A stretch of DNA of 64,000 nt, taken from an uncultured Pseudomonadales bacterium (GTDB lineage: Bacteria; Patescibacteriota; Microgenomatia; UBA1400; MFAQ01). Each line of letters begins with the position of its first letter. Within the stretch, counting starts at the first letter, position 1. Position numbers and translations under genes: made by a program. Positions 3,420-46,265 of this stretch are shown here, piece by piece. The DNA is taken from the NCBI GenBank assembly GCA_964439805.1, contig CAYTOI010000003.1, positions 36,844-100,843 of the forward strand, written 5' to 3'. The notes under the pieces were generated by a model. It ran no database searches. It was not told the DNA's origin and saw nothing but the letters and a program-made list of their open reading frames with translations.

Positions 3420-3433
3420 AATTAAGACAAACA

Positions 3434-5030: not shown

Positions 5031-5032
5031 TT

Positions 5033-12735: not shown

Positions 12736-12742
12736 AGAAAAT

Positions 12743-18243: not shown

Positions 18244-18281
18244 TATCCATCGTAATTGCAGCCTCAAATACCCCATAGCAT

Positions 18282-18310: not shown

Positions 18311-18373
18311 CCTACAGATTCGACTGAATCAAACTTTGATAAATTATGGCCACAGGCCAAAGGATGGTAAAAA

Positions 18374-19058: not shown

Positions 19059-19126
19059 GCATGAATCGCTTCTACGACTCGTCACTTTAAAAGGTGGCGA
19101 GTTTTTTATGGCCAAAAATACCTAAA

Positions 19127-19150
19127 CCTGACATCTGAGATCTGAGAACT
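19127..19150. repeat. repeat family B copy (AGATCTG heptamer array), intergenic
   Basis: cctgacatctgagatctgagaactg. Confidence 0.6.
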
Positions 19151-19186
19151 GCAAACTTGCCCCAGGCGTGTTAAAATACTGGAGCT

Positions 19187-19540: not shown

Positions 19541-19570
19541 ATCCATTTAACCCCAAAAGACTCCCATTAC

Positions 19571-19600
19571 CTGACATCTGAGATCTGAAATCTGTGATCT
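19571..19600. repeat. repeat family B copy, intergenic
   Basis: ctgacatctgagatctgaaatctgtgatct. Confidence 0.6.
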
Positions 19601-19609
19601 AATAATATT

Positions 19610-20533: not shown

Positions 20534-20627
20534 GGTCATTACAATATTTTTTTGGCTAAATAGCCAAAAACTGAACTTAATGCTAAAATAGCCATCGAAC
20601 GCAAATTTATAAGTTAAGGAGTTGTAC

Positions 20628-21248
20628 ATGGAATTAAAGTCGGTTGGCTATTGGACAGTTAAGGTTGCAAATAAGTATATGATTTTGGTTGCAGGTGAGG
20701 TGACCCAAAAAATTCCCCTACCCGTAACAGCCAATACAGTAAGGCTGGAAGATTCCCTGGGCACCAAAATTTGCTACCGTAGTCCCGAAAATTATCTTGA
20801 AGTTTTCAGCTCCGTCTCCATCTTGGCAATTTTTGACCCTCGGTTTGACGAACTAAAGCTTGTTGAACCAACTCCCTCAGAATGGTTAGAATTTTTAATC
20901 AGCGCGGTCTCCGATCACGAGTCAATACAGCAAGCAAAAAACATTTTGGCAATACTCAAAAATCGCCTTGCTGCACAGCTTGAAGTCCTTAATAAGATCA
21001 AAGACAACCTTCCCAAAAATGGCATTGTCAAACAGTCAGCCAATGTCTTGAAAACAATTAATTGGAAAGGCTCAATAATGGAAGTCTGGCGAGCGTACGA
21101 CAAGGCTTACCCCGATAAATCTTTGTCAATTCAAGAAAAAACCCCAGAAATGATCAAATCATGGCTCAAGAGCTGGTTAACATCTTACTCCCGACCCGAA
21201 AACACCACCAGAACTACTGAAAAAAGTGAGGTAAAAGAAAATGACTAA
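20628..21248 (+). CDS. hypothetical protein
   Basis: ATG with AAGGAG RBS 6 nt upstream (the track start at 20622 is TTG). Confidence 0.4.
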   Translation: MELKSVGYWTVKVANKYMILVAGEVTQKIPLPVTANTVRLEDSLGTKICYRSPENYLEVFSSVSILAIFDPRFDELKLVEPTPSEWLEFLISAVSDHESIQQAKNILAILKNRLAAQLEVLNKIKDNLPKNGIVKQSANVLKTINWKGSIMEVWRAYDKAYPDKSLSIQEKTPEMIKSWLKSWLTSYSRPENTTRTTEKSEVKEND

Positions 21249-26724: not shown

Positions 26725-27249
26725 CTATTGCAGCGGGGTTAAGAGTTTTGAATACCAACGAGATTGAAGATAGGATTTATTCTTTTTGTATGCGATTATC
26801 GCTTCATAGTCACCTACTTCAGCCAAAAAATCAAAAACATCAGCAATCCTATATCTGTTATTTGAGGCATGAACAATAATTTGAGCTGCAATGTCAGCCA
26901 AAACAAGATTCGGATCGTCCATGCCACACAAAATAAACTGATGGCTTCTTTCTGATAGATTAAAAAACCTATCTTCTTTTGAGTATTTATTAAAGAATTT
27001 CTTCATACTCCTATCAGATGACTTTATTTGAACAGGTAATGTATAACTATTTCCTCCTAGCTTCAGTCTGTCTCCAAACAAATCAGTTACTTTTACATAC
27101 ATATCATAACCATGTTTGTCTTCTGGGCTGTTTTGAACTGTTTCAGTTACTGACAACACCCAGGGTCTATCAGAAAACACCATCCAAACTAATTTTGTGG
27201 ATATTTGACCTCTCTCATCAGGATCGGTAATGTCAGGCTGCTTTTTCAA
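26725..27249 (-). CDS. hypothetical protein (174 aa)
   Basis: ORF with its own terminator at 26706-26740 on the - strand. Confidence 0.4.
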   Translation of the reverse strand: MKKQPDITDPDERGQISTKLVWMVFSDRPWVLSVTETVQNSPEDKHGYDMYVKVTDLFGDRLKLGGNSYTLPVQIKSSDRSMKKFFNKYSKEDRFFNLSERSHQFILCGMDDPNLVLADIAAQIIVHASNNRYRIADVFDFLAEVGDYEAIIAYKKNKSYLQSRWYSKLLTPLQ

Positions 27250-27311
27250 ATAGTCATCTCCTTTATAAAAGAACTTGGACTATTCTATATCAAAGAGTCG
27301 TATTTAAGCTA

Positions 27312-27530
27312 TTACTTATTTTCTTCGCATTCCTTATATTTATTCTTAAAACTTATTATTTCTCGCCATGGCTTCTTTCTATCAATCACCAGCTTCCATC
27401 CCAAAAGCTCAATTCCTATCAAAGCCACCCACCATCCTGGAAGTATGGGCAAAATCATCCCAGCAATTCCAAAGATAATTAGGAAAATTCCCAAAGCTGT
27501 TCTAAGTGTGGTGATGGTCTTCTGATACAT
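27312..27530 (-). CDS. small membrane protein (72 aa)
   Basis: Two TM helices with an LPILPGWW motif. Confidence 0.35.
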   Translation of the reverse strand: MYQKTITTLRTALGIFLIIFGIAGMILPILPGWWVALIGIELLGWKLVIDRKKPWREIISFKNKYKECEENK

Positions 27531-27558
27531 GAATAGATATCAGTATACCCTACTCGTT

Positions 27559-28176
27559 TTATCTACCCAAGATAAAGCGAACGAGTCTCTGCCAGAAAGT
27601 TAATTCTCTTACTTCTGGAACCACAACTTCTTCGTTTACAGACGGAATGGTTATTACTCTCTCCTCTGTCTCTGTTGGAGTTGGGGTAACTACTGCGGGA
27701 GTTTCAGTTACTCTACTTAATACACTTCCTCTGGAAGTTCTAATACCAAACACACTTCCATTAGCACCTACAGTAATTTTTCTCTCATCCGAAAAAGGTC
27801 CAGGCATACAACCATTGTTAGCTTTTACAGCTGCATAATATGTTCCAGCTGGTAACATGTTGATGTTTACAGATCGAGAGTTGTTATCTCCAAAGTTCGA
27901 CATACCATATATATATTTACCAGGTTGGTTACCATAAGCCAAAGTCCAAGAAGTTGCACCAGATACTTCATTCCAACCAACTTCAATTTCACTAGCACCA
28001 GACTTTCGAACAAAAGAAAATGCAGCTTTTGCAGGAACTGAATTATTACAAACAGGAGCACTAGCAGGAGAAGATCCATAACCAGCAAAAACAGAAGATG
28101 CAAATACCGAGAGTAAAGAAACAGAAAGTACTGAAGCACTTGTAACTCCTACAAACTTTATTTTGTTGTTTTTCAT
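27559..28176 (-). CDS. secreted protein with signal peptide (FN3-like beta domain plus Thr/Pro linker)
   Basis: N-terminal signal peptide (SVFASSVFAGY); beta-rich middle; TPTPTETEE linker. Confidence 0.4.
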   Translation of the reverse strand: MKNNKIKFVGVTSASVLSVSLLSVFASSVFAGYGSSPASAPVCNNSVPAKAAFSFVRKSGASEIEVGWNEVSGATSWTLAYGNQPGKYIYGMSNFGDNNSRSVNINMLPAGTYYAAVKANNGCMPGPFSDERKITVGANGSVFGIRTSRGSVLSRVTETPAVVTPTPTETEERVITIPSVNEEVVVPEVRELTFWQRLVRFILGR

Positions 28177-28311
28177 TTTGTCTTATAACCTTTTTAATAA
28201 AGGTAAAAATATATGTAACTGCTGAGATTGTAGCATAACTTTCTAAAAGTAAATACCATTAAATATTATAGAGTGCATTTATGCGATGTTTCGTATATAA
28301 TCCGCGTTGCT

Positions 28312-29262
28312 ATGAGCCGAAAACTTATCATAATTATCCCTTGTTTAAACGAAGAAACCACACTACCCCTGGTGTTTTGTGATATTCCTCACAGAATAGA
28401 CGGCATAGACACTATAGAAACTCTTATAATCGATGATGGCAGTAGTGATAAAACCATAGAAGTAGCAAAAAGTTTGGGTGTAACTCACATAATAAAAAAC
28501 ACCAGAAACCGCGGACTCGCCAAATCTTTTTCCCTCGGTATCAACTCTGCTCTCTTTCACGGCGCCGACATAATAGTAAATACAGATGGAGATAACCAAT
28601 ATCCTCAAGGAGAAATTTCTGCTTTAGTACTACCAATAATAGAAGGTAGGGCCGACATTGTCATTGCCGACAGGCAAACAAAAAATATCGCCCACTTCTC
28701 CCCTCTCAAAAAACTTCTTCAAAAGGTTGGCTCGCAAGCCGTCTGCAAACTAGCAGGTATAGACGTCCCTGATGCAGTCTCTGGATTCCGAGCCTATTCA
28801 CGCCAAGCCGCCATGGAACTCAATGTCGTTACCGAGTTTTCATACTGCACCGAAACAATCATTCAAGCAGGCAAAAAGAAACTAAAGGTTCTTTCAGTTC
28901 CCGTCACCACAAACGAAAAGACCAGAGAATCTAGACTTTTTAAAAATATTTATCAGCACATGCGCCTCACTGGCTCTACCATGGTCCGCGTCTACGCTAT
29001 GTATGAGCCCCTCAAAACTTTTTTCAATGTCTCTGCCATTTTTCTCTTTATTGGTACCGTCTTTTTTCTTCGCTTCTTCTACTACATGACACTCGGAAAC
29101 GGCGCGGGTCACTTACAATCTATTCTCTTTGGAGCCGTTATGTTCCTTGCTGGTTTTCAGATCTTTATCCTTGGCCTCGTCGCCGACCTTATCGCCGGCA
29201 ACCGCAAACTTATAGAAGAAGTCCTCTATCAGCAACGCCGCCAAAACTACAAAAAGCAATGA
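28312..29262 (+). CDS. GT2 glycosyltransferase, polyprenyl-phosphate sugar transferase type (DPM1/GtrB/ArnC-like)
   Basis: IIIPCLNEE, IDDGSSDKT and DGD motifs; two C-terminal TM helices. Start set at the ATG at 28312. Confidence 0.8.
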   Translation: MSRKLIIIIPCLNEETTLPLVFCDIPHRIDGIDTIETLIIDDGSSDKTIEVAKSLGVTHIIKNTRNRGLAKSFSLGINSALFHGADIIVNTDGDNQYPQGEISALVLPIIEGRADIVIADRQTKNIAHFSPLKKLLQKVGSQAVCKLAGIDVPDAVSGFRAYSRQAAMELNVVTEFSYCTETIIQAGKKKLKVLSVPVTTNEKTRESRLFKNIYQHMRLTGSTMVRVYAMYEPLKTFFNVSAIFLFIGTVFFLRFFYYMTLGNGAGHLQSILFGAVMFLAGFQIFILGLVADLIAGNRKLIEEVLYQQRRQNYKKQ

Positions 29263-30368
29263 GGATAACAATGATCAGTACCCTTCCGCCACTGATCGGA
29301 TTAAGCCCTTACACTGTTGGGTTGGTGTCAGCTTTATCGAAAAAAATTGAAATTGATTTTATTGGTTTCAAAAAACTCTATCCAGATTTTCTTTACCCAG
29401 GTGGATGCATAGATAAAAATGGTAAAGCGCCAAAATTCAATAAAAATGTGAATGTAAACAACTCCTTGGTGTGGTGGAATCCAATTACTTGGATCACATC
29501 TGGACTTTCAATAGATACAAAAATAGTTCACGCTCAATGGTGGAGTTGGTTCCTTGCCCCAGTATTTTTAACAGTATTGGGAATAGCAAAATTAAGAGGC
29601 AAAAAAATAATTATTACAATACACAATGTTAAACCCCACGAAAAAGAGTTTTATAAAATTTGGCTAAATAATTCGGTTATATCTCTAGGTGATGAATATC
29701 TTGTTCACAATCAATCAAACAAAGTTCTGTTTCAAAAAACCAACAATACAAAAAAACCTATCCATGTCTATCCAATAGGAATTACAGAAATAAAAAAATC
29801 AAATGTGCCAACAAGCGTACTTAGAAAAAAATATAAATTTGATAAAAACGACAAGATAGTTTTATTCTTTGGGAATATAAGAAACTATAAAGGTTTGGAC
29901 ATTCTAATTAAGTCAGTTAAATTTATAAAAAACAAAAATATCAAACTATTTATAGTGGGCAAACCATGGAAAAACTTTTCAAGTTACAACAACTTAATTA
30001 AGAAAGAAAAAATAACCACAAGAATACATAAAATACTTGAATATGTACCAGAATCAAAAGTTGCAGAAATATTTAAACTCTCAAACGTAGTAGTACTGCC
30101 ATATACAGATTTTGAGTCTTCTTCTGCTGCGGGCACACTGACTATAAATTTCCACAAACCACTAGTAGTTACTAATGTTGGAGGATTAACCAACCTAGTA
30201 TCTGACAAAAACACAATATCTGAACCAAATAACCCGTTAAATCTCTCCATAAAAATTGATTACGCGTTAAGGAAGCAAAGCTGGCTGTCAACAAAATCCA
30301 AAGAGATAAAAAACCAAATGATGTGGAACAAGATTGCCAAAAAATACCTACTAAATGTATACATATGA
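29259..30368 (+). CDS. GT4 (group 1) glycosyltransferase
   Basis: C-terminal GT4 pattern LFFGNIRNYKGLDILI...FIVGK; ATGA overlap with the upstream gene. Confidence 0.65.
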   Translation: MRITMISTLPPLIGLSPYTVGLVSALSKKIEIDFIGFKKLYPDFLYPGGCIDKNGKAPKFNKNVNVNNSLVWWNPITWITSGLSIDTKIVHAQWWSWFLAPVFLTVLGIAKLRGKKIIITIHNVKPHEKEFYKIWLNNSVISLGDEYLVHNQSNKVLFQKTNNTKKPIHVYPIGITEIKKSNVPTSVLRKKYKFDKNDKIVLFFGNIRNYKGLDILIKSVKFIKNKNIKLFIVGKPWKNFSSYNNLIKKEKITTRIHKILEYVPESKVAEIFKLSNVVVLPYTDFESSSAAGTLTINFHKPLVVTNVGGLTNLVSDKNTISEPNNPLNLSIKIDYALRKQSWLSTKSKEIKNQMMWNKIAKKYLLNVYI

Positions 30369-31252
30369 AACCTTTAGTCTACATAATAATTGTAAATTGG
30401 AATGGCATTAAAGATACCATTGAATGTTTAGAGTCACTAAAAACAATTAAGTATACTAATTACAAAGTAGTTCTAGTAGACAACGGTTCAAAAAACAATG
30501 AAGGTGGAAAAATTAAAGAACAGTTCCCTGAAATAATATTAATAAAAAATTCAACAAACACTGGTTTTGTGGTAGCTAACAATCAAGGTATTAAAAAGGC
30601 ACTGGTAGATAAAGCAGATTACGTACTGTTATTAAATAACGATACTGTAGTTTCAAATAATTTTCTTAATGTTTTAGTTGAGTTGGCTGAAAAAGACAAA
30701 AAGATTGGTGTGGTTACCCCAAAAATTCTTTACTATAAATCGGACAAAATATGGTCCATGGGAGGATATGTTTCAAAAGTAACAGGAATAAGCAGGATGA
30801 TCGGTAAAGGAAAGTTATCTCAATACTTTATAGACTACATTGAGCCTGAATTTGCCACAGGTTGTGCTTTTCTGGTAAAAACAAAAATCTTAAAAAAAGT
30901 TGGTCTACTTGACCATATTTATTTCGCATATTATGAAGATGTTGACTGGAGTTTTCGAATAAGAAAAGCTGGTTACAAAATTGTTACAAATCCAAACAGT
31001 ATTATTTATCATAAAAAATCTGCTAGTGCAGGAATAGCTGGAACTAGCAAGTTCAGCTCTATACAAACATATTATTTAGCTAGAAATTCAATAATTTTCG
31101 CAAAAACAAATTTACACTCAGTAGATAAAATTATTTATTTAATAGGATCATATTCAATTAGGGTTATTTACTTAATATTAAATTTTAATAAATTAATCAA
31201 TTTTAAATACCTATATAAAGGTCTTGTAGATGGATGGAATTATGAAAAATAA
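30365..31252 (+). CDS. GT2 glycosyltransferase (rhamnosyltransferase-like)
   Basis: YIIIVNWNG...VVLVDNGS and DTV (DxD-like) motifs. Confidence 0.8.
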   Translation: MKPLVYIIIVNWNGIKDTIECLESLKTIKYTNYKVVLVDNGSKNNEGGKIKEQFPEIILIKNSTNTGFVVANNQGIKKALVDKADYVLLLNNDTVVSNNFLNVLVELAEKDKKIGVVTPKILYYKSDKIWSMGGYVSKVTGISRMIGKGKLSQYFIDYIEPEFATGCAFLVKTKILKKVGLLDHIYFAYYEDVDWSFRIRKAGYKIVTNPNSIIYHKKSASAGIAGTSKFSSIQTYYLARNSIIFAKTNLHSVDKIIYLIGSYSIRVIYLILNFNKLINFKYLYKGLVDGWNYEK

Positions 31253-32882
31253 TATAGTTGCAATATTTATTATATTTCTGCTAATCATCTTTGGAAATAT
31301 TAGTAATATTTTTGGAAACAATTGGTTCTTACACCCAGATGAAACAGGATCATACTTTGTAGCTCAAAATATCTACAAAACAGGAAAAATTATCTATACC
31401 AATAAATACAATAGTTTGTATAAAACAACTGCGTTTACACCTGCAGATCTATACTTCAATGGTAAATATGACCTGCCAAGAAAGCCAATAGCATACTATT
31501 TATTAATATCACCAAGTTTTATATTAGGGGAAAATGGACCATTTTATCTAAGTTTTCTTATATCTGTTTTTTCAGTCATTTCAATATACTATTTATCTTT
31601 AAAATTTACTGATAATCATAACATTGCTACAATTGCATCGATTGTGTGGTCTTCTTCTGCGTCTTTCTTATATTGGTCAAATTTTTTATATGGCAACTTA
31701 TTGTCAATATCTTTATTGTTTATAGGTATTGGATTTTTATTAAACAAAAACGAATTAAATAACAAATTCATATACGGGTCAATATTATTAGCAATGTCAG
31801 TTTTAATTAGATACGAATTTATATTATTTACACTACCTGCAATAATTATGTTTTCAATATTTAAGATTAAAAACTCCAAAAGAATTACAATATTTTTTTT
31901 AGCAATATTTTCGTCAATAATATTACTGATTCCAATTTCAAATTACAAAATTTTCGGGTCAATAATACCAACATCATACATGAATGATTTATCTGAATAT
32001 GACAAATCAAATTTAAATACAAAACAAAACTTATACCAAAACAGTTTAAACAAAATCATTTATGGCTTTAAAAGCGTATACACCCGGTTTCTATCCAATG
32101 ATTTCAAACCAAACTGGAACAGAATATATAATAATTTTCATACAAACATTGCAGAAGGAAATGTATTAATTTACGTATTAGGTTCTATTGGAATAATTTT
32201 ATTCATACTAAATAATAAAAATAGCAATCAAAAAAAGTTAATCGCAACCGCACTTACAATTGCAGTTTTATATTGGAGCTATAACACATTAGGTGGATAT
32301 CATTGGGGAGAAGGTTCTGAAGGAATAGGTCTTGTGTACACCAGATACTTATTGGTTACAGTAGCACTTTATTCAATTTTCACAGCCATTTTTATTAATT
32401 TTCTTATTAAAAAATCAAATGGTAGATTTATTAGCAAAATTGTTATTTTATTATTACTTGTTCTTCATGTTTTCCAATCTGTTCAAATTCTATTCTATAA
32501 AAATAATAATTTGATTCAATCAATATCTCAAAAAAATGATCTTCTAAAAATCAATAACATAGTAAATCAACTGCCTACTGACTCAGTAATTGTAACCAAC
32601 CTACTAAGTAAGGGAATAAATAATATAACAGTACTAGACTATCAAAAAATTCAGGAAATTGATGAAATTAAAATTAAAAATACAACAAATTATATAGAAA
32701 ATTTACTGATAAACAAAACAGATGTTTATCTACTAGAAGCTTTTACACACAAAGCTAGTTATTTAAATATTGAGGAAAATTTATCAAAAAATAACGACAT
32801 AATATCTACTGGAACAGATACTGAAATTAAAACTAAAAATTTTGGTGATCTAAAATTAACAAAATTAGTCTTCAATAAGTGA
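31230..32882 (+). CDS. large polytopic membrane protein, candidate GT-C glycosyltransferase or polymerase
   Basis: 550 aa with at least 10 TM segments; extremely AT-rich; sits inside the glycosyltransferase cluster. Confidence 0.4.
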   Translation: MDGIMKNNIVAIFIIFLLIIFGNISNIFGNNWFLHPDETGSYFVAQNIYKTGKIIYTNKYNSLYKTTAFTPADLYFNGKYDLPRKPIAYYLLISPSFILGENGPFYLSFLISVFSVISIYYLSLKFTDNHNIATIASIVWSSSASFLYWSNFLYGNLLSISLLFIGIGFLLNKNELNNKFIYGSILLAMSVLIRYEFILFTLPAIIMFSIFKIKNSKRITIFFLAIFSSIILLIPISNYKIFGSIIPTSYMNDLSEYDKSNLNTKQNLYQNSLNKIIYGFKSVYTRFLSNDFKPNWNRIYNNFHTNIAEGNVLIYVLGSIGIILFILNNKNSNQKKLIATALTIAVLYWSYNTLGGYHWGEGSEGIGLVYTRYLLVTVALYSIFTAIFINFLIKKSNGRFISKIVILLLLVLHVFQSVQILFYKNNNLIQSISQKNDLLKINNIVNQLPTDSVIVTNLLSKGINNITVLDYQKIQEIDEIKIKNTTNYIENLLINKTDVYLLEAFTHKASYLNIEENLSKNNDIISTGTDTEIKTKNFGDLKLTKLVFNK

Positions 32883-33653
32883 TTCATGATTGTATCTAAT
32901 TTCTAGAAATTTTAAAAAAGATAAAATTGGATAAAAACTTCTGACTATAGCAATAATTAACCCATGGACACCATCCAAATAACCTCTTTTGACTATCAAC
33001 CTTCCAAAAAACTGTTTATTGACTTCAAATATTAGTTCAAAAATAAGAGGCAACATGCCTTTACCTTTTGAATACTTTTTGTAAATCTCCTTCGCTTCCA
33101 ATTCAGTGTATGTATTATAACCGGATATTGTGTCTGAAATTTTATTATGGGAATAATGAAGTATTTCTCCTTTCTTTATTTCACCCAAACATTTTTTATC
33201 GATATTAATCTTTTCATGTACTGTGCCATTAAATTTACAAAATTTTCTGTTATACAATCTATGTCTTGGATACCTACAATAACCAGATCCTCTTACAAGT
33301 TTTCCATACATGTAGTCAGTCTCATACATAACATAAGCATTTACAGATTTATTTAAAAAATTAATACTTAATAACGACACAGAGAGTTCTTCATTAATCA
33401 CTTCATCAGCATCTATATTCAATATCCAATCATTTGAAGCTTTTTTTGCAGCAAAATTTTTCTGGTCAGTATAACCTTTCCACTTATTTTCATAAAAAAT
33501 TACATTCTTATATTTAGAACATATTTTTTTTGTTGAATCACTACTAAAACTGTCTACAACAATGACTTCATCAACAAACTTAAGAGAGTTCAGACAACGA
33601 GCTATGTTTTTCTCTTCATTAAAAGTTATAACTGTCGCCGATAAATTCCTCAT
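32865..33653 (-). CDS. GT2 glycosyltransferase
   Basis: ATVITFNEEKNI...VVDSFSSD...DADE motifs. Confidence 0.8.
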   Translation of the reverse strand: MRNLSATVITFNEEKNIARCLNSLKFVDEVIVVDSFSSDSTKKICSKYKNVIFYENKWKGYTDQKNFAAKKASNDWILNIDADEVINEELSVSLLSINFLNKSVNAYVMYETDYMYGKLVRGSGYCRYPRHRLYNRKFCKFNGTVHEKINIDKKCLGEIKKGEILHYSHNKISDTISGYNTYTELEAKEIYKKYSKGKGMLPLIFELIFEVNKQFFGRLIVKRGYLDGVHGLIIAIVRSFYPILSFLKFLEIRYNHESLIED

Positions 33654-34870
33654 CTTTTTATATATTTAGTAATAATAAATCCGAGAACGATTATTTCACT
33701 CAGCAGTACCGACACAGACGACACCACAAATCCATATCTTGGCATTACCAGTAGGTTAATAAGTAGACTACAAACTAGTCCCACAGAGACCGCATAAAAA
33801 ACTTGTTTCTGTTTGTGTCGAGCAAAGAGCAGATTACTAGCAAAGATTCGGAAATAGTTAACCACCCCAGCCCAAACCAATATGGCCATGGCGGGCGCAG
33901 CCGATAGATAGACCGAGCCATATATGGCTTTTACAATTTGGCTTTGAAAAATTGTAATAAACGCAGCCAAAGGCAAAAGTCCTATTACCGAGTAGGTAAT
34001 CACCATTCTAATGAGCTTTCTAAGAGTTTCTTGCTTCTTCTCTTGAATCAGTACATTGATACGAGGGAAAATAGCATTGTTGATGACATTGATACTCTGA
34101 AAGGCAAAAAGAATTTTGTAAGCAGCCTGGTAAAATCCCACTTCCCTACTCCCAAAGAACTTACCTATTAGTAGTGTGTCTGCGTTCGCATAAATTGTCC
34201 CCACTACCGCAAGCCCCATAAATGGCACTGTTTCTCGTAGTATTTTCTCCCAAAACTCTTTTTCAAAAAGTACTTTTATTTTTACCTTCATTCCCCTAGC
34301 AAGCAAGATAGAAACAATTAGCGAAACAATAGTCGTAACAGCATAAGCAAGCACCACCTGCATCGCGCTCCCTTTAAGAGCAATAACTCCCAAAGCCGAA
34401 ACAAGAATTCCTAAGTAATAAGTAATTCTGGCTACAAACACATACTGCATTTTTTCCCAAGCCGAAAAGATGGCGACAAACACTCCAGAAAGATTCTGAC
34501 TAAGATTGTAAAGCAACACCGCCAAGATCATAGATCTTGTAGTATTTGTCGGTACAAAAATAAAACTCAAGAGAATAAGTAAAGTAATAAGAAGAGACAG
34601 ACTAATCTTTAACCCCAACAAGTTCCCCAAATATTTTTCTGTTTCTTTTTTGTTTTTTGCTACATCTCTAGTGGACACAGTGTTTAAGCCAAAGTCACCA
34701 GCAATCATAAACAACGCTACGTAAGAAAAAGCCAAGTTAAAAGCTCCAAAATCTTTTGGACCTAAGCATCTTACTAGCCCTATAGTGACACCAAACATTA
34801 CCACCTTAGAAATGAGTTCAGTGATGCCAAGCCAGAAGGCACTTTGTACTAGAATAATGCGGTTTGACAT
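33650..34870 (-). CDS. polysaccharide flippase (Wzx/PST family, MOP superfamily)
   Basis: 12 TM segments; N-terminal LGITELISKVVMFGVTIGLVRCLGPKDFGAFN pattern typical of Wzx. Confidence 0.7.
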   Translation of the reverse strand: MSNRIILVQSAFWLGITELISKVVMFGVTIGLVRCLGPKDFGAFNLAFSYVALFMIAGDFGLNTVSTRDVAKNKKETEKYLGNLLGLKISLSLLITLLILLSFIFVPTNTTRSMILAVLLYNLSQNLSGVFVAIFSAWEKMQYVFVARITYYLGILVSALGVIALKGSAMQVVLAYAVTTIVSLIVSILLARGMKVKIKVLFEKEFWEKILRETVPFMGLAVVGTIYANADTLLIGKFFGSREVGFYQAAYKILFAFQSINVINNAIFPRINVLIQEKKQETLRKLIRMVITYSVIGLLPLAAFITIFQSQIVKAIYGSVYLSAAPAMAILVWAGVVNYFRIFASNLLFARHKQKQVFYAVSVGLVCSLLINLLVMPRYGFVVSSVSVLLSEIIVLGFIITKYIKR

Positions 34871-34891
34871 GGTACGATACTACCACATAAT

Positions 34892-36385
34892 ATGAAAAAT
34901 AATAATATGAAAAATATATTGAATTCATCGCTAAATTTTGTTAGAAATCTCACAAAATCTAAGGAGTTTATGACTCTAAACAAAACAGGCCTATATGCTT
35001 CCATATTAGCTTTTATCACCATCGTTGTTATGGGCATTGCTCTCCGCTACTTCGGACCATTTGGCAGAAACTCCATTTACGAATTCAAACCCACTCTTCC
35101 AAACACCGAAAGTTTTCTCTCACTAAACAAAACAGGTGACAAACTAGAACTTGGCGGACTCCTTCTCAAAAACAAAGTTACTCGATTCTCCCTAGATAAT
35201 CAAAAATATTTAAAAGACATCAAAGTTGCCCTCAACTACAAACCAGGTCAAAAGGAAATAAAAATTGGAGTCAGAGCAAACGAAACGGATCCTTTCATCT
35301 ACAAGTCTCTCTTCTTTGACCCTATCAATAGTCTTTCCTGGGCCAAGATTCAGTCAAATGGTATGACTTTGTTCCAAAAGACCAAACAATTCGACTCCAT
35401 CCCTGCATTCCTCAGTCAGCTAACTCCAGACAAAAAGGTCGGACTCTACCAAATAAATGTTAACGACCTCATTCCTTTCATATACCCTAATCTCAAACAA
35501 ACCAATACTGTCATCACTGCCCCTATCCGCGGCAATGCCACTATGTACGTCTTAGTTTCCAAAGGCGACTTAAACATCAAAGTCAGCAAACAAGACTTAA
35601 ACATGACCGACGGAGCCGACTCCCTCAGCCTTTCCTTGTCTCTTAATAATATAAAGGTTACCGAAGCCAATATCCCAGACGATGGCTTTGCCGACAGAAG
35701 CAAAAGCAAAACAGCTGCTCAGACAACCAGTCTCTCTGTACCAAAAGCCAAACCAGGTGTCTACAAGCTAGATATTAAGTTCGACAGTGCTGGCAACGAC
35801 GGCCTAATATCTAAGATTGAGGTCAACCAAGCCAAAGTAGTCTTTGGCGGCTCTGTACTAATCTGGAACGGTGCCCCAACCGCTTTCTACACCTTTGACC
35901 CAAAAATTGTTACTTCTACCTCTTGGGCTGATGCTATCCAAAACCTCAAAGTCGACGACAAAGCTGATCTAGCTATTAAAGACATCAAAAACAAATTCAA
36001 CTTTGATCTGGCCAAAACTATGAAGGGTAAACCAGCTGAAGAAATCTACAAAGTTTTCTCACCAAAAGGTAATATCAACTTCGGTACTGGTAGTTACTTC
36101 TCCTTCAACCCAGACACCTACTTCGATCCAAAAATAATTAAGGCTCAAGTGCTAAACACCAATAGTGTTCAAGCAGATATCGAAAAAAACCTAGACTTTA
36201 TCCTTACCACTCTAAACCCCAACAAGGAACAAGACTACTGGCTAATGTCCGAACTAAACTTTAACCCTGCAGACTTTCAGCTCAAGGGTGACAAAATCTT
36301 CTTCTCTCTAGAAGTACCAGATTTGGACAAGCAAGGCGGATCTCTAGAGCTAGGTGGACTTACAGTAACCCTTATTTCCAAATAA
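34892..36385 (+). CDS. hypothetical membrane-anchored extracytoplasmic protein (497 aa)
   Basis: N-terminal TM helix followed by a large beta-rich domain. Alternative start at the ATG at 34970 with an AAGGAG RBS. Confidence 0.4.
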   Translation: MKNNNMKNILNSSLNFVRNLTKSKEFMTLNKTGLYASILAFITIVVMGIALRYFGPFGRNSIYEFKPTLPNTESFLSLNKTGDKLELGGLLLKNKVTRFSLDNQKYLKDIKVALNYKPGQKEIKIGVRANETDPFIYKSLFFDPINSLSWAKIQSNGMTLFQKTKQFDSIPAFLSQLTPDKKVGLYQINVNDLIPFIYPNLKQTNTVITAPIRGNATMYVLVSKGDLNIKVSKQDLNMTDGADSLSLSLSLNNIKVTEANIPDDGFADRSKSKTAAQTTSLSVPKAKPGVYKLDIKFDSAGNDGLISKIEVNQAKVVFGGSVLIWNGAPTAFYTFDPKIVTSTSWADAIQNLKVDDKADLAIKDIKNKFNFDLAKTMKGKPAEEIYKVFSPKGNINFGTGSYFSFNPDTYFDPKIIKAQVLNTNSVQADIEKNLDFILTTLNPNKEQDYWLMSELNFNPADFQLKGDKIFFSLEVPDLDKQGGSLELGGLTVTLISK

Positions 36386-36389
36386 GCCT

Positions 36390-37154
36390 ATGCGCCGAAT
36401 ACTGGCGGATCTCTTCTCCATCTCACTAGTCTTTTATTTGCTGATGTTTTTGCTGGAAAATATTTTCCCCAAAATCATCAGCAATGTCTTTAATCTTAAC
36501 TACTTACTAATTCCCGTCATGATCTTTGGCGTTCTCTCAGCGCTGCTTCCTCTACCAGAAAGTGAACAACCAAAAGACGAGTACAAAAGATCAGACCTCT
36601 GGTGGTCCTTACTTCTTTCTATTTTGGGCGGCGCACTTATCTACTACAAAATCGACTTACAACCTACTCTCCGCATTAGCATCTCTCTCCTCTCTACTCT
36701 CCTTATTGGCCTTATGTCTGTCCTCATAATTTTGCCCGAAGACTACGAAATCTCCGTGCCAAAAATTAAGTGGTGGATATCACTAATCCTTATTCCTGTT
36801 TTAATTTTTGGCTACTCAAAAATAAATTTCACTTCACAACCAACAGTAATTGAAGAAACCATCATCAGAAAGTCACCTGATCTTTACCAAATAATTCTTA
36901 TCAATAGAAGTGAGGACAAAGACTTTGGCGAAACCTATCGCCAGCTAATAGTAAACAATGACTACAAAAACATCACCACAGTTAGCACAGATACCTACCC
37001 CCAGACCACTTCTCAAGCCACTGTTATCTTTAGCCCGGAAGACGCTAGTGCCGGCCAAGAAATCGCCGATCTACTGCACCAATCCATCCCAAATGTACAG
37101 ACCATGCCACCTAGCAAAAACATTCCTCAACAAATAATTATTATCCTAAAGTGA
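36390..37154 (+). CDS. hypothetical membrane protein
   Basis: 5-6 TM segments. Confidence 0.4.
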   Translation: MRRILADLFSISLVFYLLMFLLENIFPKIISNVFNLNYLLIPVMIFGVLSALLPLPESEQPKDEYKRSDLWWSLLLSILGGALIYYKIDLQPTLRISISLLSTLLIGLMSVLIILPEDYEISVPKIKWWISLILIPVLIFGYSKINFTSQPTVIEETIIRKSPDLYQIILINRSEDKDFGETYRQLIVNNDYKNITTVSTDTYPQTTSQATVIFSPEDASAGQEIADLLHQSIPNVQTMPPSKNIPQQIIIILK

Positions 37155-38458
37155 TTTACCTTATCTTTGCTTTTTATCTTCTTGCTCGTCTTTACCCTTA
37201 TTTTTTCTCACCCGTTCCCCTAGGCTACGACGCCGGACTATACATTTATCTATGGCAAAAATATAGTGAGCTAGGCTTGGTTCAGTTTACTAGCCTCCCC
37301 AAGTGGCTAGTAGAAGTCTATCCTCCCTTTATCGCTATTGTCGGCAAGCTATTCGGTCTACTCGCCTCCCCTGCTACTTTTGCTATTCCCCTATCAATAA
37401 TTATTTCTTCTGTACTATTCCATGCAGTTTATTTATTTGTCGCCAAAAGGTACGACAAAAACACCACCCTCTGGATAATGTTTTTCTTGGCTGCATCCAT
37501 TGTCCAATACAAATTTTTCTGGTGGTTTTATATCAAAAATATTCTTGCTCTCGCCTTTGTTTTTTATTATCTGAACTTCAAAAACCAGAAGCCCTACCTC
37601 AGCTACCTATTTGTAGTTCTCACAATCCTTACTCACCAGCCCACCTCAATAATTTTATTTTTGGCGATTATCTTTAGTAACAGTTTTTCCTCTCTAATCC
37701 CCTTCTTTGCTACCTTCACCCTTTACTACATACCAAACTTCAGTCTTACAGTTGCCCCGTTCCTCCCAGGAGTTTCTTCTACAATTGGTGAAGCTTCTGG
37801 AACTTTTTGGAATATCCGAGAATCTCTTTTCTACATGCTCCACTATCTCCCTTTTTCTCTCTACGGACTATACGTAAATAGAAAAGCCAAAAATAAATTA
37901 GTTCCACAACTAGCCCTAGTCTCTTTTCTTATTCCCCTTTTTGGATTATTTTTATCTCGTCGCTTCATCCCTTTCTTTGATATTTTTGCTCTAATACTGG
38001 CAGGCCTAGGTGCTAGCAAATTTTTCAAAGATTTTCCCAAATTAAAATACTTTTATATCCACCTAGTTATTATTTCTATAAGTTTATTCGTGTTCCAATA
38101 CTCCGCTGCAGCCATAAATATAGATGAATTTGAGGAAATTAAGTTGCTGACTACCACCCCATCTTCTGCCTCCATTTTGGTTACTGATAATGAGTACACA
38201 CCTTGGATATATGGCTACACAAACCGTCGTTCTATTACTCCAGGGTTTGGTGAATTTGATATTTACTGGACAACCTATGAGTGGCAACAATACTGGCTCT
38301 CCGGCAATCAAACTTTAGAGATTTCTCTTCTCCAAAAACTTCCTCAACCTCTCTATATTTGGAAAGGCGACAAAAATGCCCTCACAAAGTTTTCTTTGCA
38401 AGGGCCTTGTTTTGAACGCTTCTCTTGGCACACTTATCGCTTTGTGTGCCAGCAATAA
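37151..38458 (+). CDS. polytopic membrane protein (possible second GT-C-like or polymerase component)
   Basis: 435 aa, at least 10 TM segments plus a C-terminal soluble domain; ATGA overlap with the upstream gene. Confidence 0.4.
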   Translation: MIYLIFAFYLLARLYPYFFSPVPLGYDAGLYIYLWQKYSELGLVQFTSLPKWLVEVYPPFIAIVGKLFGLLASPATFAIPLSIIISSVLFHAVYLFVAKRYDKNTTLWIMFFLAASIVQYKFFWWFYIKNILALAFVFYYLNFKNQKPYLSYLFVVLTILTHQPTSIILFLAIIFSNSFSSLIPFFATFTLYYIPNFSLTVAPFLPGVSSTIGEASGTFWNIRESLFYMLHYLPFSLYGLYVNRKAKNKLVPQLALVSFLIPLFGLFLSRRFIPFFDIFALILAGLGASKFFKDFPKLKYFYIHLVIISISLFVFQYSAAAINIDEFEEIKLLTTTPSSASILVTDNEYTPWIYGYTNRRSITPGFGEFDIYWTTYEWQQYWLSGNQTLEISLLQKLPQPLYIWKGDKNALTKFSLQGPCFERFSWHTYRFVCQQ

Positions 38459-39217
38459 CTATTTCTTTGCAGCGTCTCCCGCTATCATTTTCATAGCATC
38501 CTGAACCGTTGTCATAAACTGAGCAGGGAAAATAATTGTCGAATTCTTTTCTACCGAAATCTCGGCCATGGTCTGTAAGGTACGGAGCTGCAATGCCACT
38601 GGGTGAGCAGAAATAACATCAGCTGCCTCAGCAAGCTTCTGCGCAGATTGGAACTCTCCTTCTGCTGCTACCACTTTGGCTCTTCGCTCTCTTTCGGCTT
38701 CAGCTTCTTTGGCCATAGCTCTTTGCATATTGTCTGGCAAGGAAATATCTTTTATTTCTACAGCAGTCACTTGTGCACCCCATGGTTCGGTGTGAGTATC
38801 AATAACCTTTTGAATCTGTTGATTTATTTTTGTGGTCTGAGACAAAAGCTCATCAAGAGTAAACTGACCAACTACGTTTCGGACTGTGGTCTGAGAAATT
38901 TGATTGACGGCATTATAAATATCATCAATGGCCACTACTGACTTTTGGGGATCCACAATGTGGTAATAAGCTACAGCGGCAATATCTATAGACACATTGT
39001 CTTTGGTAATAATTTTTTGCGAAGGAATTCCCATGGTAATAGTACGAAGTTGCACTTTTCTCATCACTTCCAAAAAAGGAATCAAAATAATAAGCCCAGG
39101 TCCACGAACGCCGACTACTCTACCCAAGAAGAAAACCACCCCTCTCTCGTACTCTTGGACGATCTTTAGGCTAGCAAATAACACAAACAGAATAATAGAA
39201 ACTATTGTGAAGTTCAT
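38459..39217 (-). CDS. SPFH/band-7 (stomatin/HflK-like) protein
   Basis: N-terminal TM helix, SPFH domain ([23 protein letters not shown]), [11 protein letters not shown] coiled coil. Confidence 0.85.
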
Positions 39218-39233
39218 ACTCTCTAGTATATTC

Positions 39234-40613
39234 CTATTTGTCTTTTACCGTAACTCCCATAGCTATTAGCTGATCGCGAAGTCTATCCGCCTCTGCCCAG
39301 TTCTTCTCGGCTCTAAATCTCTCCCTCTCCTCCACCATTTTATTTATATCTTCATTATCTTGAGTTCTTGATTCCTTGAGTTCTTGAGTTCCCAAATTTA
39401 GCCCCATCACCTTATCAAACTCTAGTAACAAATATTTTTTCTCTTCGTCGGCCAGATCACCCTTCATCATCTCCCAAACTACTGCTAGAGCCTTTGGCAT
39501 ATTCAAATCATCCTCCACCGCTTCAGCAAATTTACTTATAAATACTTCCACATCTTGAGCTCTTGATTCCTTGAGTTCTAGAGTTCTTGACATGAAATTT
39601 ACCAATTTCATATACGCCTTCTCCGCCCCCTCTATCGCTTCCCAAGTAAAGTTCATTTGTTTTCGGTAGTGCGCAGTTAGGTACAGATACCGAAGTGCCA
39701 TGGCCGAATACCCTTTCTCTACTATGTCACTGACTCTATAAACATTCCCCAAGCTTTTACTCATCTTCTTTCCATCTACCATCAAAAAACTGCTATGAAA
39801 CCAATATTTCACAAATGGCTTCTTACCCGTGCCTGCTTCACTCTGAGCAATCTCATTTGGGTGATGAATAGAAACGTGATCTTCTCCTCCAGTATGCAAA
39901 TCTATTTGCTCACCCAAGTACTTCATACTCATCGCCGAACACTCTATGTGCCAACCAGGAAATCCATCTCCCCAAGGGCTGTTCCAATGCATTACATGAT
40001 CTTTATGTTTACCAACAGTTTTAAACCACAAGGCAAAATCAGCAGGACTCTTTTTGCTATTATCTGTCACCACTTCTTCTCTCACTCCCACTAGCTTTTC
40101 ATCTATAGACTGGCCAAAAAGTTTTCCATAATCAGGGAATCTACTCACATCAAAATAAACTGCTTCTGGAGTGTCGTAGGCGTATCCATTGGCAATTATT
40201 TTCTTGATTAGTTCTATCTGATCTTCTACATGTTCCGTAGCTTTGCACTGAATAGTGGGCCGAATAATATTGAGTGAGTCCATTTCTTTTAGGAAATAAT
40301 CTGTGTACTCCTCTGCTACTTGCCATACTGTTTTCCCGTACTTCATAGCCCCCTTCTCTAGCTTGTCTTCGCCTTCGTCTCCGTCAGAAACCAAGTGACC
40401 TACATCGGTAATATTTTGAACATGAGTAACATTTAAGTTTTCAGTGTTTTCCAAAACTCTTTTGAGAATATCGTCGTTGACATATTTACGGCCGTGACCA
40501 ATATGAGGAAAGTCGTAAACCGTAGGGCCACAAGCATACATTCCCACTTCACCAGGTTTACTAGGAACAAACTCTTCAGTTTGTTTGGAAAGAGAATTAA
40601 AAATCTTGAGCAT
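39234..40613 (-). CDS. cysS: cysteine--tRNA ligase
   Basis: HIGH ([10 protein letters not shown]) and KMSKS motifs. Two in-frame family-A repeat insertions near the C-terminus. Confidence 0.9.
39358..39390. repeat. repeat family A copy, in frame in cysS (copy 1)
   Basis: 40 nt identical to the rluA copy. Confidence 0.8.
39554..39588. repeat. repeat family A copy, in frame in cysS (copy 2)
   Basis: tcttgagctcttgattccttgagttctagagttcttga. Confidence 0.75.
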
Positions 40614-43167: not shown

Positions 43168-44367
43168 TTGAACCAATACAACCACTTATATCTTGGCGTT
43201 AACTATGCAGTACTCGCCCCAGGAAGACAGATAAAAACCAAAACTGAAAATCACATTCTTTTTACCGATGGCTCGCAAGTAGATCTCGACACGGGACAAG
43301 TAATTGATCTTGCCGAACAAGATGAAAAATTTTTGGTGGTAATTCCACTCTCACAAGGATTAAATCACTTCAACCTTGGTGACCTGAACACTGCACCAAA
43401 AGCAATGGCATGGACCAGTTCAAAACTAAAAATTAACTATCCAGGTCCAGTCAACATTATCCCCAGCTTAAACGAAATATTGACAGTCCACGAAAATAAA
43501 TACTGTACAGCCGTAAAACTAGGCACCGAAGAAGTTATTGTTACAGCCGTTGCCATGGACGAGGTTAGCTATTTCCACGATCAAAAGAACGGCACCAACA
43601 CTCCAAACTTCGACTACAAAACCAAGAACTTCCCCGCCATAAACATCTGGGCACCAGTGAACACAACTGTTACTGGCGAAGCTACAGCTTTAAACTTTTC
43701 CAAGTTAAAGCACATTGATATGAAAGTAAACATTGTAAACGGCCAGCTGGCCACCGAAGACATCTTTGTCGACGGAGAAGGACATCTATCTCTAAGTTTA
43801 GTTTCAACGCCACTAATTGGCGTAAATCAAATAGGTGATGTTAATATCGTCACAAGCGGCCAAGTAGATAAAATTGATGTAATTGGTACGGGAGATGTTC
43901 GCGTCATCTGCAAGGATGCTGGCAATATCAGCGTCGATGCGGGTGGCGAAGCATATGTCTCGGCCAGTAATGTTGACGGTCTATATATTGCAGCAGCAGA
44001 AGACGTTACTGTCAATATAGCTAACAACACTGATTTTATTGTAGTAAAGTCTGACGGCAGCATAAACATAAACGGCGGAAAATACAAAGAAATCACAAGT
44101 CTAGAAGCAGAGTTCGATATTTCCTTAGACGTTGAATCCTTTGAAATAGCTGTGGTTAAATGTGGTGGCAATTTGAATGTCAAAGCCAATATCGGCACTC
44201 AAAGCATCGCTGCTTCAAGCAAGAAAATCGCCAAGTTGACACTTGCCACTGCCAATGTTGTAGATGTCAGGGCTGAAGAAATCTCCATAATGGCCTACGA
44301 ATACCTCAAAGACCCTATTGTTCCTGCCAACAACCCCAACAACTTCATCTCCTATCGTGGTGCGTAA
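43168..44367 (+). CDS. beta-solenoid repeat protein (DUF4097/adhesin-like), paralog 1
   Basis: RBS AAGGAGG; N-terminal domain shared with 44853 (LKINYPG motif); C-terminal periodic beta repeats (VDVIGTGDVRVI... / VNIKANIGTQSIAAS...). Confidence 0.5.
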   Translation: MNQYNHLYLGVNYAVLAPGRQIKTKTENHILFTDGSQVDLDTGQVIDLAEQDEKFLVVIPLSQGLNHFNLGDLNTAPKAMAWTSSKLKINYPGPVNIIPSLNEILTVHENKYCTAVKLGTEEVIVTAVAMDEVSYFHDQKNGTNTPNFDYKTKNFPAINIWAPVNTTVTGEATALNFSKLKHIDMKVNIVNGQLATEDIFVDGEGHLSLSLVSTPLIGVNQIGDVNIVTSGQVDKIDVIGTGDVRVICKDAGNISVDAGGEAYVSASNVDGLYIAAAEDVTVNIANNTDFIVVKSDGSININGGKYKEITSLEAEFDISLDVESFEIAVVKCGGNLNVKANIGTQSIAASSKKIAKLTLATANVVDVRAEEISIMAYEYLKDPIVPANNPNNFISYRGA

Positions 44368-44852: not shown

Positions 44853-46265
44853 GTGAATATGGAAATTTATTACAACGGCTTGATACTTTTTGGAAACTAC
44901 CTACTTGTAACAAACGGCAGGTCAGTAAGAAACTCTAACAACGGAATCTATACCTTTTCAGACGGATCTATTGTTAACCTAAAATTAGGAATCATAGTTA
45001 CAAATAACAAGAATGAAAATCAAAAAGATTTTACTATCATCACCCTTGTTCCAGGAACTCAAATAATCGAGATTGGCAATAAGAACAGAGACCCCCAAAG
45101 CAAACTATGGCTCTCGGATTCGTTAAAAATTAATTATCCGGGAAAGGTTGTAATTACAGAATCAACCGATGGCACGATCTCAGTAAAAGAAAATGAGTTT
45201 TGTGTTGCAAATGAAAGTAATGGGTTAGTATCAGTTTCGTTAGTTGACTACACAAAACTCGTCGTCAATACCGAAACTTCTTCAATCAACGAAGTTTATT
45301 TGGGAAAACTACCAACTCTCGAAATTTCAGCCCCAGCAAACGTACAAATTACAAACAATTCTGGAAGTTTAACTTTTGATACGGCCAAGAGTGTAGAGCT
45401 GTTAGGTGGAGATCTCACTGGAAACAATGTTGACTCGATAACTGGATCAGCAGATAGCAGCGTTGAAATAAAAATCAATTCTGTAAATACGCTGACATTT
45501 AAAACATCTAGCTTTTTAGCAATCAGCCTAGACATCGCAAACACCGTATCAGTTGAGGCAGAATCAGCCTTAAAAATTAATGTTTCAGGCGAAATTAAAG
45601 CTCTCAACATCAATGGAGAAAGTTCTGTAGAAATCAAAGGTGGAACTTTTGAAAAAATAACGGTTCAGGAATGCATTGGTTCATTTAATTTGGCAGACTT
45701 TACACACGTAGGCAAATTAGTTGTTTCTTCTGAATCGTTTGTAAATATTACTGGGCAATCGGTTGATATTGTTGACATAAAAAAATCAGACAGTAAAACT
45801 GCAATTAAAGTCAAAAAAAGCAAAGATATTACCGTTTATTCAGACTCAGCAGTTACCATTGAAGGCGAAGATTTGGATATCATTAATCTTCTCTACGCTG
45901 ATGGAGCTGTAAACATAAAAACTACGACTTCAAAGAAAATAACTGTTAAGAGTGATAGCAGCGTCAATATCACCGGTTCAAAAGTGGATGTTGTCGATGT
46001 AACTTATGCTGATGGCCGAGTTGAAATTGATGCTGATACAATCAACAACATTCGCGTTGTCTCAGACTCCGCTGTTTCAGTGAATACAAACAGCGGTGAA
46101 CAGACTGTTAGTATTGAAGCGGACAGTCGAGTAAATCTCCAACTGGCTAAGGTTAAAAGTCTAAAGGTAATTTCCGACTCTGCGGTCAGCGTATCTGCTT
46201 ACCATTACTACACAAACCCAGATATAACCGCAGATGGAAGAATAACTGTAACCGATCGTAAATAA
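44853..46265 (+). CDS. beta-solenoid repeat protein (DUF4097/adhesin-like), paralog 2
   Basis: Shares its N-terminal domain with 43168. Long C-terminal array of roughly 20-aa repeats (xSDSAVxIxG...). Confidence 0.5.
   Translation: MNMEIYYNGLILFGNYLLVTNGRSVRNSNNGIYTFSDGSIVNLKLGIIVTNNKNENQKDFTIITLVPGTQIIEIGNKNRDPQSKLWLSDSLKINYPGKVVITESTDGTISVKENEFCVANESNGLVSVSLVDYTKLVVNTETSSINEVYLGKLPTLEISAPANVQITNNSGSLTFDTAKSVELLGGDLTGNNVDSITGSADSSVEIKINSVNTLTFKTSSFLAISLDIANTVSVEAESALKINVSGEIKALNINGESSVEIKGGTFEKITVQECIGSFNLADFTHVGKLVVSSESFVNITGQSVDIVDIKKSDSKTAIKVKKSKDITVYSDSAVTIEGEDLDIINLLYADGAVNIKTTTSKKITVKSDSSVNITGSKVDVVDVTYADGRVEIDADTINNIRVVSDSAVSVNTNSGEQTVSIEADSRVNLQLAKVKSLKVISDSAVSVSAYHYYTNPDITADGRITVTDRK

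Follow-up and report, generated by a model that had tools for sequence, protein, structure and literature searches.

Is a block of glycosyltransferase (GT) and membrane protein genes in a reduced bacterial genome a foreign island or a resident locus whose centre is exchanged, and what would its membrane enzymes do? The question is raised by nine genes at positions 28312-38458 of a 64,000-nucleotide stretch of contig CAYTOI010000003.1 (the window, in which all positions below are counted unless a related locus is named), from a Microgenomates-type bacterium of the Candidate Phyla Radiation (CPR). An original prediction, made from the sequence alone, described these genes as an AT-rich 10-kb island of horizontal origin that would serve a surface glycan assembled on a lipid carrier. 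Our analysis supports a locus for a surface glycan built on a lipid carrier, in a CPR bacterium with a reduced genome. However, comparison of its sequence with those of relatives indicates that the locus is a conserved frame with an exchangeable cassette, like O-antigen and capsule clusters in this respect, and not a 10-kb acquired island. The frame ends in the gene for a 435-amino-acid (435-aa) membrane protein, here called E435, for which structure prediction points to a GT-C enzyme.

The nine open reading frames (ORFs) named earlier were all found at their coordinates in an ORF check of the window, and an independent Logan assembly of this genome (SRR12487046) yielded the same genes. The frame begins with GT2a, a putative polyprenyl-phosphate GT (28312-29262, + strand), and resumes with Wzx, a flippase of the MOP family (33650-34870, - strand), followed by a conserved trio that forms an operon on the + strand: U497, a 497-aa anchored ectoprotein (34892-36385), U254, a 254-aa membrane protein (36390-37154), and E435 (37151-38458). 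Between GT2a and Wzx lies the replaceable cassette, four low-GC genes in 4.4 kb on both strands (29259-33653), delimited by G+C content (GC) and by a break in blastn similarity. It encodes a predicted cytoplasmic GT4 of GT-B fold (29259-30368, +), a rhamnosyltransferase-like GT2b (30365-31252, +), a 550-aa PMT_2-like GT-C protein (31230-32882, +) and GT2c (32865-33653, -). Overlaps of four nucleotides join the GT2a stop to the GT4 start (ATGA at 29259), GT4 to GT2b (ATGA at 30365), the Wzx stop to the GT2c start (ATGA on the minus strand, 33650-33653) and U254 to E435 (GTGA at 37151), and the convergent cassette GT-C and GT2c genes overlap by 18 nucleotides. The ATGA junctions that had suggested an operon were confirmed, but GT2c and Wzx lie on the minus strand and the locus is divided into three transcription units (+, -, +).

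Homologues of E435 led to a comparison set of 33 loci in species-representative genomes and several metagenome contigs. Genomes of the Woese-, Shapiro- and Roizmanbacteria types carry, in this order, GT2a, GT4, a variable set of GT, methyltransferase and GT-C genes, Wzx on the reverse strand, U497, U254 and E435; matching gene order was seen in loci L002, L004, L009, L010, L016, L039 and L041. In L041, the closest relative, the frame proteins are 77% (GT2a), 69% (Wzx), 60% (U497), 47% (U254) and 55% (E435) identical to those of the window, whereas in its cassette GT4 falls to 26%, GT2b to 34%, and the polytopic proteins have no BLAST match. Nucleotide similarity to L041 detected with blastn ends at 29223 and restarts at 33756, bracketing the low-GC block. 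The opposite pattern was found in L039, where GT2b is 58% identical in amino acids and 68% in nucleotides, against 32% for Wzx and 29% for U497. Such mosaic identities indicate that cassettes have been exchanged between lineages. Orthologous flanks, a non-orthologous centre and identities that disagree between loci, the marks of a variable cassette, were thus all found. The synteny comparison that had been proposed as a check on the island accordingly speaks for replacement of the inner 4.4 kb and against acquisition of the whole, since relatives retain the frame.

Base composition gives the same boundaries. The mean GC of the window is 0.387, and 62 ORFs of at least 120 aa in the window, taken as background, have a GC of 0.399±0.031. 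Only the four genes at 29259-33653 depart from this, with values of 0.315, 0.284, 0.253 and 0.283 (z -2.7 to -4.8). The shift to high AT content reported at about 29300-33600 was therefore genuine (GC 0.25-0.32), but it covers four genes and 4.4 kb, not 10 kb. In the cassette, GC at third codon positions is 0.20-0.29 compared with 0.38±0.065 in the background; the AT shift extends to the first and second codon positions, and the content of F+Y+N+K+I is 0.41-0.46 compared with 0.29±0.05. By contrast with GC, the other half of the suggested composition check showed no difference: the Kullback-Leibler (KL) distance of synonymous codons placed the cassette within the background (z -0.3 to +1.2). 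Because this test gave no separation, the argument for horizontal transfer of the cassette rests on synteny, GC and amino acid composition.

That the whole 10-kb cluster was acquired as one AT-rich island is, on these results, highly improbable. The strong AT shift of the four central genes is what such an acquisition would offer in its favour. GT2a (GC 0.43), Wzx (0.39) and the last three genes (0.39-0.41) have native composition, however, so that 5.7 of the 10 kb match the background, and these genes are syntenic with orthologues in relatives (47-77% identity in the closest). With every ORF accounted for, no integrase or transposase gene and no flanking direct repeats were found within 27000-39500, and no tRNA gene borders the locus, the sole tRNA of the window being at 12650. 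The synonymous codon usage of the cassette also argues against a single foreign block, as does the recurrence of low-GC centres: in eight of the nine related loci examined, the GC of the centre was below that of the frame. A low-GC centre that recurs in relatives is a property of the locus and is no proof of one recent transfer.

The structure prediction suggested earlier for the 435-aa protein gave a confident AlphaFold2 (AF2) model (pLDDT 92.4, pTM 0.90) with GT-C enzymes as fold neighbours. In the model, about 11 helices span the membrane and an alpha/beta domain of 110 aa lies outside the cytoplasm; a crude Kyte-Doolittle scan, the source of the hydrophobic-segment and transmembrane (TM) counts given here for window proteins, detected 8 segments. 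In a Foldseek search of the PDB, the best 24 matches were all GT-C enzymes (probability 1.00, whole-chain TM-score, TMq, up to 0.67). Ranks 1-15 were all catalytic subunits of oligosaccharyltransferases (OSTs), namely STT3, PglB and AglB (E 8.5e-7 to 8e-5, TMq 0.49-0.67), and these were followed by ALG12, another PglB entry, AftA, DPY19, ALG9, ALG6 and ArnT. No WaaL or SEDS structure, of the GT-C(B) class, was among the 50 matches listed. In an alignment of 30 family members, R13, G25-Y26-D27, H162, R271 and D277 are invariant. The G-Y-D directly follows TM segment 1, so that the conserved catalytic candidate is an Asp in the N-terminal loop; at least 90% of members share C420 and C433 in the C-terminal domain. 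Pfam gave no match for the window protein, to EpsG, PMT_2 or otherwise, and no STT3 match for its family. EpsG (PF14897) was matched at E <=1 by 14 of the 30 members (best 3e-7), one distant member exceeding, with 34.2, the gathering score of 30.1, and single members match PMT_2, PTPS_related or DUF2079. Judged from its model, E435 is a compact GT-C(A) enzyme with an OST-like predicted fold, but it is not an OST by sequence.

The large uncharacterised membrane proteins had been put forward as GT-C candidates, and for two of them, of 550 and 435 aa, this holds: both are assigned to the GT-C glycosyltransferases. The 550-aa cassette protein has 9 hydrophobic segments and matches PMT_2 (PF13231) at 5.5e-4, its 20.6 bits falling short of the gathering score of 26.1, as well as the NCBIfam model LA_3751/3752 putative GT at 1.3e-12, under its cut-off. 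A word-seeded search of a 5.8-billion-protein collection found a single homologue at E <=1e-3, P0056 (32% identity), which carries PMT_2 above the gathering score and occupies the same position in the L039 locus of another Microgenomates metagenome-assembled genome (MAG). Positional equivalents in six of ten other loci also match PMT_2, five of them above the gathering score. A sequence or profile search of all PDB chains with this family gave no match at E <=10. The family has an invariant D37 after TM segment 1, and hhalign joins it to the E435 family with 97% probability (E 8.7e-11), D27 of E435 being aligned with D37. The L041 cassette has two GT-C-type polytopic genes, 2540-4192 (+) and 4195-5781 (-), where the window has one; in hmmsearch the pair matched the cassette GT-C profile at 1e-19 and 6e-8, and PMT_2 was found in one of them.

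Searches against Pfam, NCBIfam and PDB sequences upheld the earlier assignments of the cytoplasmic GTs and of Wzx. GT2a matches PF00535 (4.7e-20, 72.6 bits), and two TM segments (237-255 and 271-289) lie at its C-terminus. In NCBIfam it matches AglJ (TIGR04182) best, over the full length at 8.5e-30, although the score of 104.1 bits is under the cut-off of 325; the PDB sequences that it matches are those of the Pyrococcus Dol-P-Man synthase (5MLZ, 6.6e-16), GtrB and ArnC. By sequence, it is thus a predicted polyprenyl-phosphate glycosyltransferase of the DPM1/GtrB/ArnC/AglJ type. No other gene of the locus is as well conserved (66-77% identity in relatives), and GT4 comes after it in L002, L004, L039 and L041. 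In the cassette, GT4 matches PF00534 (5.5e-19), GT2b matches PF00535 (2.4e-20) and TIGR01556 (2.5e-30), and GT2c matches PF00535 (1e-20) and, weakly, a SunS-like family. Wzx has 9 hydrophobic segments and matches PF01943 at 9.8e-38 (130.6 bits against a gathering score of 28.2); outside L041, its identity in relatives is 32-43%. No phosphoglycosyl transferase (PGT) of the Bac_transf or MraY/WecA type was found in a Pfam scan of window membrane proteins or in five Pfam-annotated relatives, which fits GT2a as the initiating enzyme. Genes for nucleotide-sugar synthesis are likewise lacking in the locus, as are those for Wzz or another polysaccharide co-polymerase (PCP). It had been said that the locus has no Wzy, Wzz or ligase; the statement stands for Wzz/PCP, but with two GT-C enzymes present it is otherwise misleading.

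The earlier count of three very large polytopic proteins overstates the case: the 550-aa and 435-aa proteins are of this kind, but U254 has 4-5 TM segments and a soluble C-terminal domain, and U497 is single-pass. The single TM anchor of U497 is joined to an all-beta ectodomain of several jelly rolls (AF2 pLDDT 85.8). It has no Pfam match and no PDB chain match at E <=10. Foldseek matched single jelly-roll domains only, from the BC2L-C lectin N-domain, TNF/C1q-like proteins, BcsB, PorU and phage tail proteins; with whole-chain TMq values of <=0.2, an assignment of function from these matches was rejected. Longer U497 homologues end in a C-terminal LytR_C domain. In U254, E23 is invariant within the motif FLLE. 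The window protein has no Pfam match, and its C-terminus aligns with the region in which eight of 16 homologues match LytR_C (PF13399; best 7.7e-11); three archaeal members match DUF1616. In LCP cell-wall glycopolymer ligases, LytR_C is an appended domain of unknown function (PMC11481543).

The E435 family, which has no Pfam model of its own, comprises 748 clusters at 50% identity among 1.84 billion representatives, 395 of them at E <=1e-30, and most of the matches are full-length. MAGs with the labels Woesearchaeota or Nanoarchaeota also have the trio, arranged as E435-U497-U254, and E435 occurs without its partners in Peribacteria-type genomes. In archaeal-type loci, a gene for LPG_synthase_TM, the MprF-type flippase domain, lies just upstream of E435 (L036 8797-9753, L018 7013-7939), and in P0139 (823 aa) this domain is fused to an E435 homologue. 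By context, this adjacency and fusion, like the nearby Wzx and GT2a genes of the window, tie E435 to a putative flipped lipid-linked donor. The archaeal assignment is based on record titles, on DUF1616 matches and on one Ski2-type helicase with a DSHCT domain; Rfam searches of the archaeal-labelled loci returned nothing that confirmed their domain. It should be noted that the titles of third-party annotation (TPA) MAGs for L008, L011, L013, L018, L024 and L025 (Gammaproteobacteria, Methanosarcinales, Dehalococcoidia) look unreliable. We found no description in the literature of an OST or GT-C module of CPR or DPANN organisms. In what is otherwise an ordinary variable-cassette glycan locus, the compact OST-like GT-C and its two partners form a conserved module common to CPR bacteria and DPANN archaea, which is unusual and apparently undescribed. 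A bolder proposal, that E435, U497 and U254 are a hitherto unrecognised minimal OST-like machine of both groups for en-bloc transfer of a polyprenyl-monophosphate oligosaccharide to surface proteins or the wall, we consider improbable.

For the region as a whole we tentatively favour, at somewhat under an even chance, the reading that it is a chromosomal locus for the cell-surface glycan of a Microgenomates-type CPR bacterium, composed of frame and cassette, in which glycan is transferred much as in the archaeal Agl pathway. On the cytoplasmic face, GT2a would prime undecaprenyl phosphate with a first, invariant sugar, as AglJ does; the GT4 and GT2 enzymes of the cassette would then lengthen the lipid-linked glycan, and Wzx would flip the lipid-linked oligosaccharide. 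Outside, E435 would recognise the invariant lipid-proximal end and move the glycan to a conserved acceptor of the envelope, which could be a protein or a wall polymer; U497 and U254 would be partners that bind the glycan or the wall. The cassette GT-C, also outside, might use a lipid-phosphate donor to add a sugar specific to the strain, or might link units, and the cassette in general would set the strain-specific part of the glycan. Protein or S-layer glycosylation is possible. Gene content, the assignments of family and fold, conservation of the frame, replacement of the cassette and the spread of the module are shown by the data; we infer which donor and acceptor are used, in what order the steps run and what U497 and U254 do. 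The Agl-like scheme is the most coherent self-contained one and would explain that the conserved enzymes, GT2a and E435, are those that handle the invariant end of the glycan, that GT4 is coupled to GT2a and that no PGT was found in any annotated copy of the locus.

Several observations weigh against this scheme. The lead of the OSTs among the TM-scores of E435 is slight, up to 0.67 as compared with 0.59 for ALG12 and 0.57 for ArnT. E435 lacks the OST motif WWDYG; the nearest stretch is TPWIYGY (TPWIYGYT in the window protein, TPWxYGYS in the family), in which the Asp position is variable. The profile of 30 E435 sequences matches no PDB chain, and hence no solved OST, at E <=10. Distant members of the family match PMT_2 and EpsG above the gathering score, and enzymes of the PMT_2 type normally take lipid-phosphate-monosaccharide donors (GT-C(A) donor table, PMC10920833). 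U497 and U254 are without a family or structural match that is informative on function. Every step of the scheme is drawn from gene content, sequence and predicted fold. Finally, the initiating enzyme could be encoded outside the window, as wecA is located outside the O-antigen clusters of Escherichia coli.

The main rival to the Agl-like scheme, which we regard as somewhat unlikely, is decoration of the GacI/GacK/GacL, CsbB/GtcA/YfhO or ArnC/ArnT type. GT2a would then make an undecaprenyl-phosphate monosaccharide, Wzx would flip it, and E435, the cassette GT-C or both would transfer the single sugar to a polymer or protein made elsewhere, while the cassette GT4 and GT2 enzymes would build a separate glycan begun by a PGT encoded outside the window. 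The solved relatives of GT2a are all lipid-phosphate-monosaccharide synthases, and both the cassette GT-C and members of the E435 family match PMT_2, as this rival would have it. Such donors are used by all GT-C(A) families except the OSTs (PMC10920833), and the Wzx-family protein GacK has been proposed to flip GlcNAc-P-Und for the GT-C enzyme GacL (bioRxiv 10.1101/180810). However, decoration would leave the flipped oligosaccharide implied by GT4, the GT2 enzymes and Wzx without a transferase in the locus. It also sits poorly with the translational coupling of GT2a to GT4 through an ATGA overlap, with the presence of GT4 after GT2a in four other loci, and with the Foldseek ranking of E435, which is led by OSTs and not by ArnT.

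A classical Wzx/Wzy locus for exopolysaccharide or capsule, in which flipped repeat units would be polymerised by E435 as an EpsG-type (Wzy-like) enzyme, is in our judgement quite improbable. The combination of a Wzx flippase with several cytoplasmic GTs would suit it, and so would the EpsG matches of nearly half of the aligned E435 family (14 of 30), including the distant member above the gathering score, but the window protein itself has none. The fold neighbours of E435 (OST, ALG, AftA, DPY19 and ArnT) are of the GT-C(A) class, with neither WaaL nor SEDS in the 50 matches listed, and its signature is an Asp of the N-terminal loop, not the Arg/His pattern of the C-terminal loop that characterises polymerases and ligases (PMC10920833). 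Moreover, E435 is conserved while the genes for the repeat unit would vary, the opposite of a typical Wzy, and the locus has neither a Wzz/PCP gene nor an initiating PGT.

If the bolder proposal of a minimal OST-like machine is correct, an archaeal, Agl-like type of glycosylation would operate in bacteria and would be built on a 435-aa enzyme without the sequon-binding motif WWDYG, and the exchangeable cassette would give ultra-small episymbionts variation at the surface, where hosts and phages recognise them. A locus of this kind, with a conserved module for glycan transfer and a specificity cassette that can be swapped, would control attachment to hosts, susceptibility to phages and diversity among strains. 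As a compact, well-predicted family with fixed partners, E435 could serve to test the minimal needs of lipid-linked glycan transfer. If it is merely a new GT-C family inside an ordinary variable glycan locus, the outcome would be a useful annotation and no surprise.

One neighbour of the locus may take part in it. The gene hyp205 (27559-28176, -) is divergent from GT2a and encodes a secreted protein of 205 aa without a Pfam match, with a signal peptide, two conserved Cys residues, a linker rich in Pro and Thr and, at the C-terminus, the conserved tail FFxxLxxFIFGK. Its orthologues adjoin GT2a in L002, L011 and L039 (48-55% identity), and it may be a candidate glycoprotein or glycosylation substrate. 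The narrower idea that it is a conserved N-glycoprotein was dropped, N-sequons not being conserved in the alignment of orthologues.

The best promoter-like site of the region, TTGACA-16-CATAAT (34864-34891, +), agrees with the consensus at 11 of 12 positions and is a consensus match only. It sits in the gap of 21-36 bp between the divergent Wzx and U497 genes; the gene caller starts U497 at 34907 (492 aa). On the opposite strand of the 3' end of E435, a strong terminator-like hairpin with a 12-bp stem and a T-rich tail (38378-38405, -) is probably the terminator of the convergent Band_7 gene (38459-39217).

Elsewhere in the window, a patch at 18000-21000 has a higher GC (0.45 compared with 0.39); by KL distance, the most codon-atypical window genes are ORF 18374-18844, with a third-position GC of 0.58, and ORF 19610-20533, with a GC of 0.487. 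An ORF of 474 aa (11324-12748, -), with 6 hydrophobic segments and no Pfam match, overlaps the tRNA-Leu CAA gene (12650-12735, +), and its true start is probably downstream. The genes at 43168-44367 and 44853-46265 (both +) are neighbouring paralogues with 29.5% identity over 183 aa.

Among known systems, the locus can be compared with the Agl pathway of Haloferax volcanii (AglJ, AglG/I/E, AglR, AglS and AglB), in which a GT2 acts on polyprenyl monophosphate, soluble GTs extend the glycan, a Wzx-like flippase moves it, and a second GT-C and an OST-type final transferase act on the outer side. Counterparts are seen here in GT2a, with AglJ as its best NCBIfam match, in the extending GTs, the Wzx flippase, the second GT-C and the OST-type fold of E435. 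The differences are that E435, at 435 aa, is shorter than AglB (about 600-1000 aa), lacks WWDYG and is not detectably similar in sequence to STT3 or AglB; that GT2a reaches 104 bits where the AglJ cut-off is 325; that the host is bacterial; and that U497 and U254 have no Agl counterpart.

A GT2 synthase of polyprenyl-phosphate sugars, a flippase (GacK being of the Wzx family) and a GT-C are also combined, in a monoderm-type envelope, in GacI/GacJ-GacK-GacL of Streptococcus pyogenes, CsbB-GtcA-YfhO, ArnC-ArnT and GtrA/B/C, which the locus resembles further in the PMT_2-type similarity of both its GT-C families. Unlike these decoration systems, it brings together two GT-C enzymes and three cytoplasmic GTs around an embedded variable cassette, it has no genes for a backbone polymer (ABC transporter, rhamnan synthases), and the folds nearest to E435 are those of OSTs and not of ArnT.

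O-antigen clusters are low in GC. With the O-antigen and capsule (Wzx/Wzy) clusters of Proteobacteria and Firmicutes, the locus shares conserved flanks, a non-orthologous centre of lower GC with GTs and polytopic enzymes, and mosaic exchange. It differs from them in having no Wzy/WaaL-type (GT-C(B)) enzyme, Wzz/PCP, nucleotide-sugar synthesis genes or initiating PGT, its membrane transferases being of the GT-C(A) type. At the level of protein families, the closest comparison is with EpsG (PF14897) and PMT_2 (PF13231): E435 members match both, in some cases above the gathering score, and the cassette GT-C family matches PMT_2. The window E435 matches neither, however, and belongs to a discrete family that has a C-terminal domain of its own and whose partner genes are fixed.

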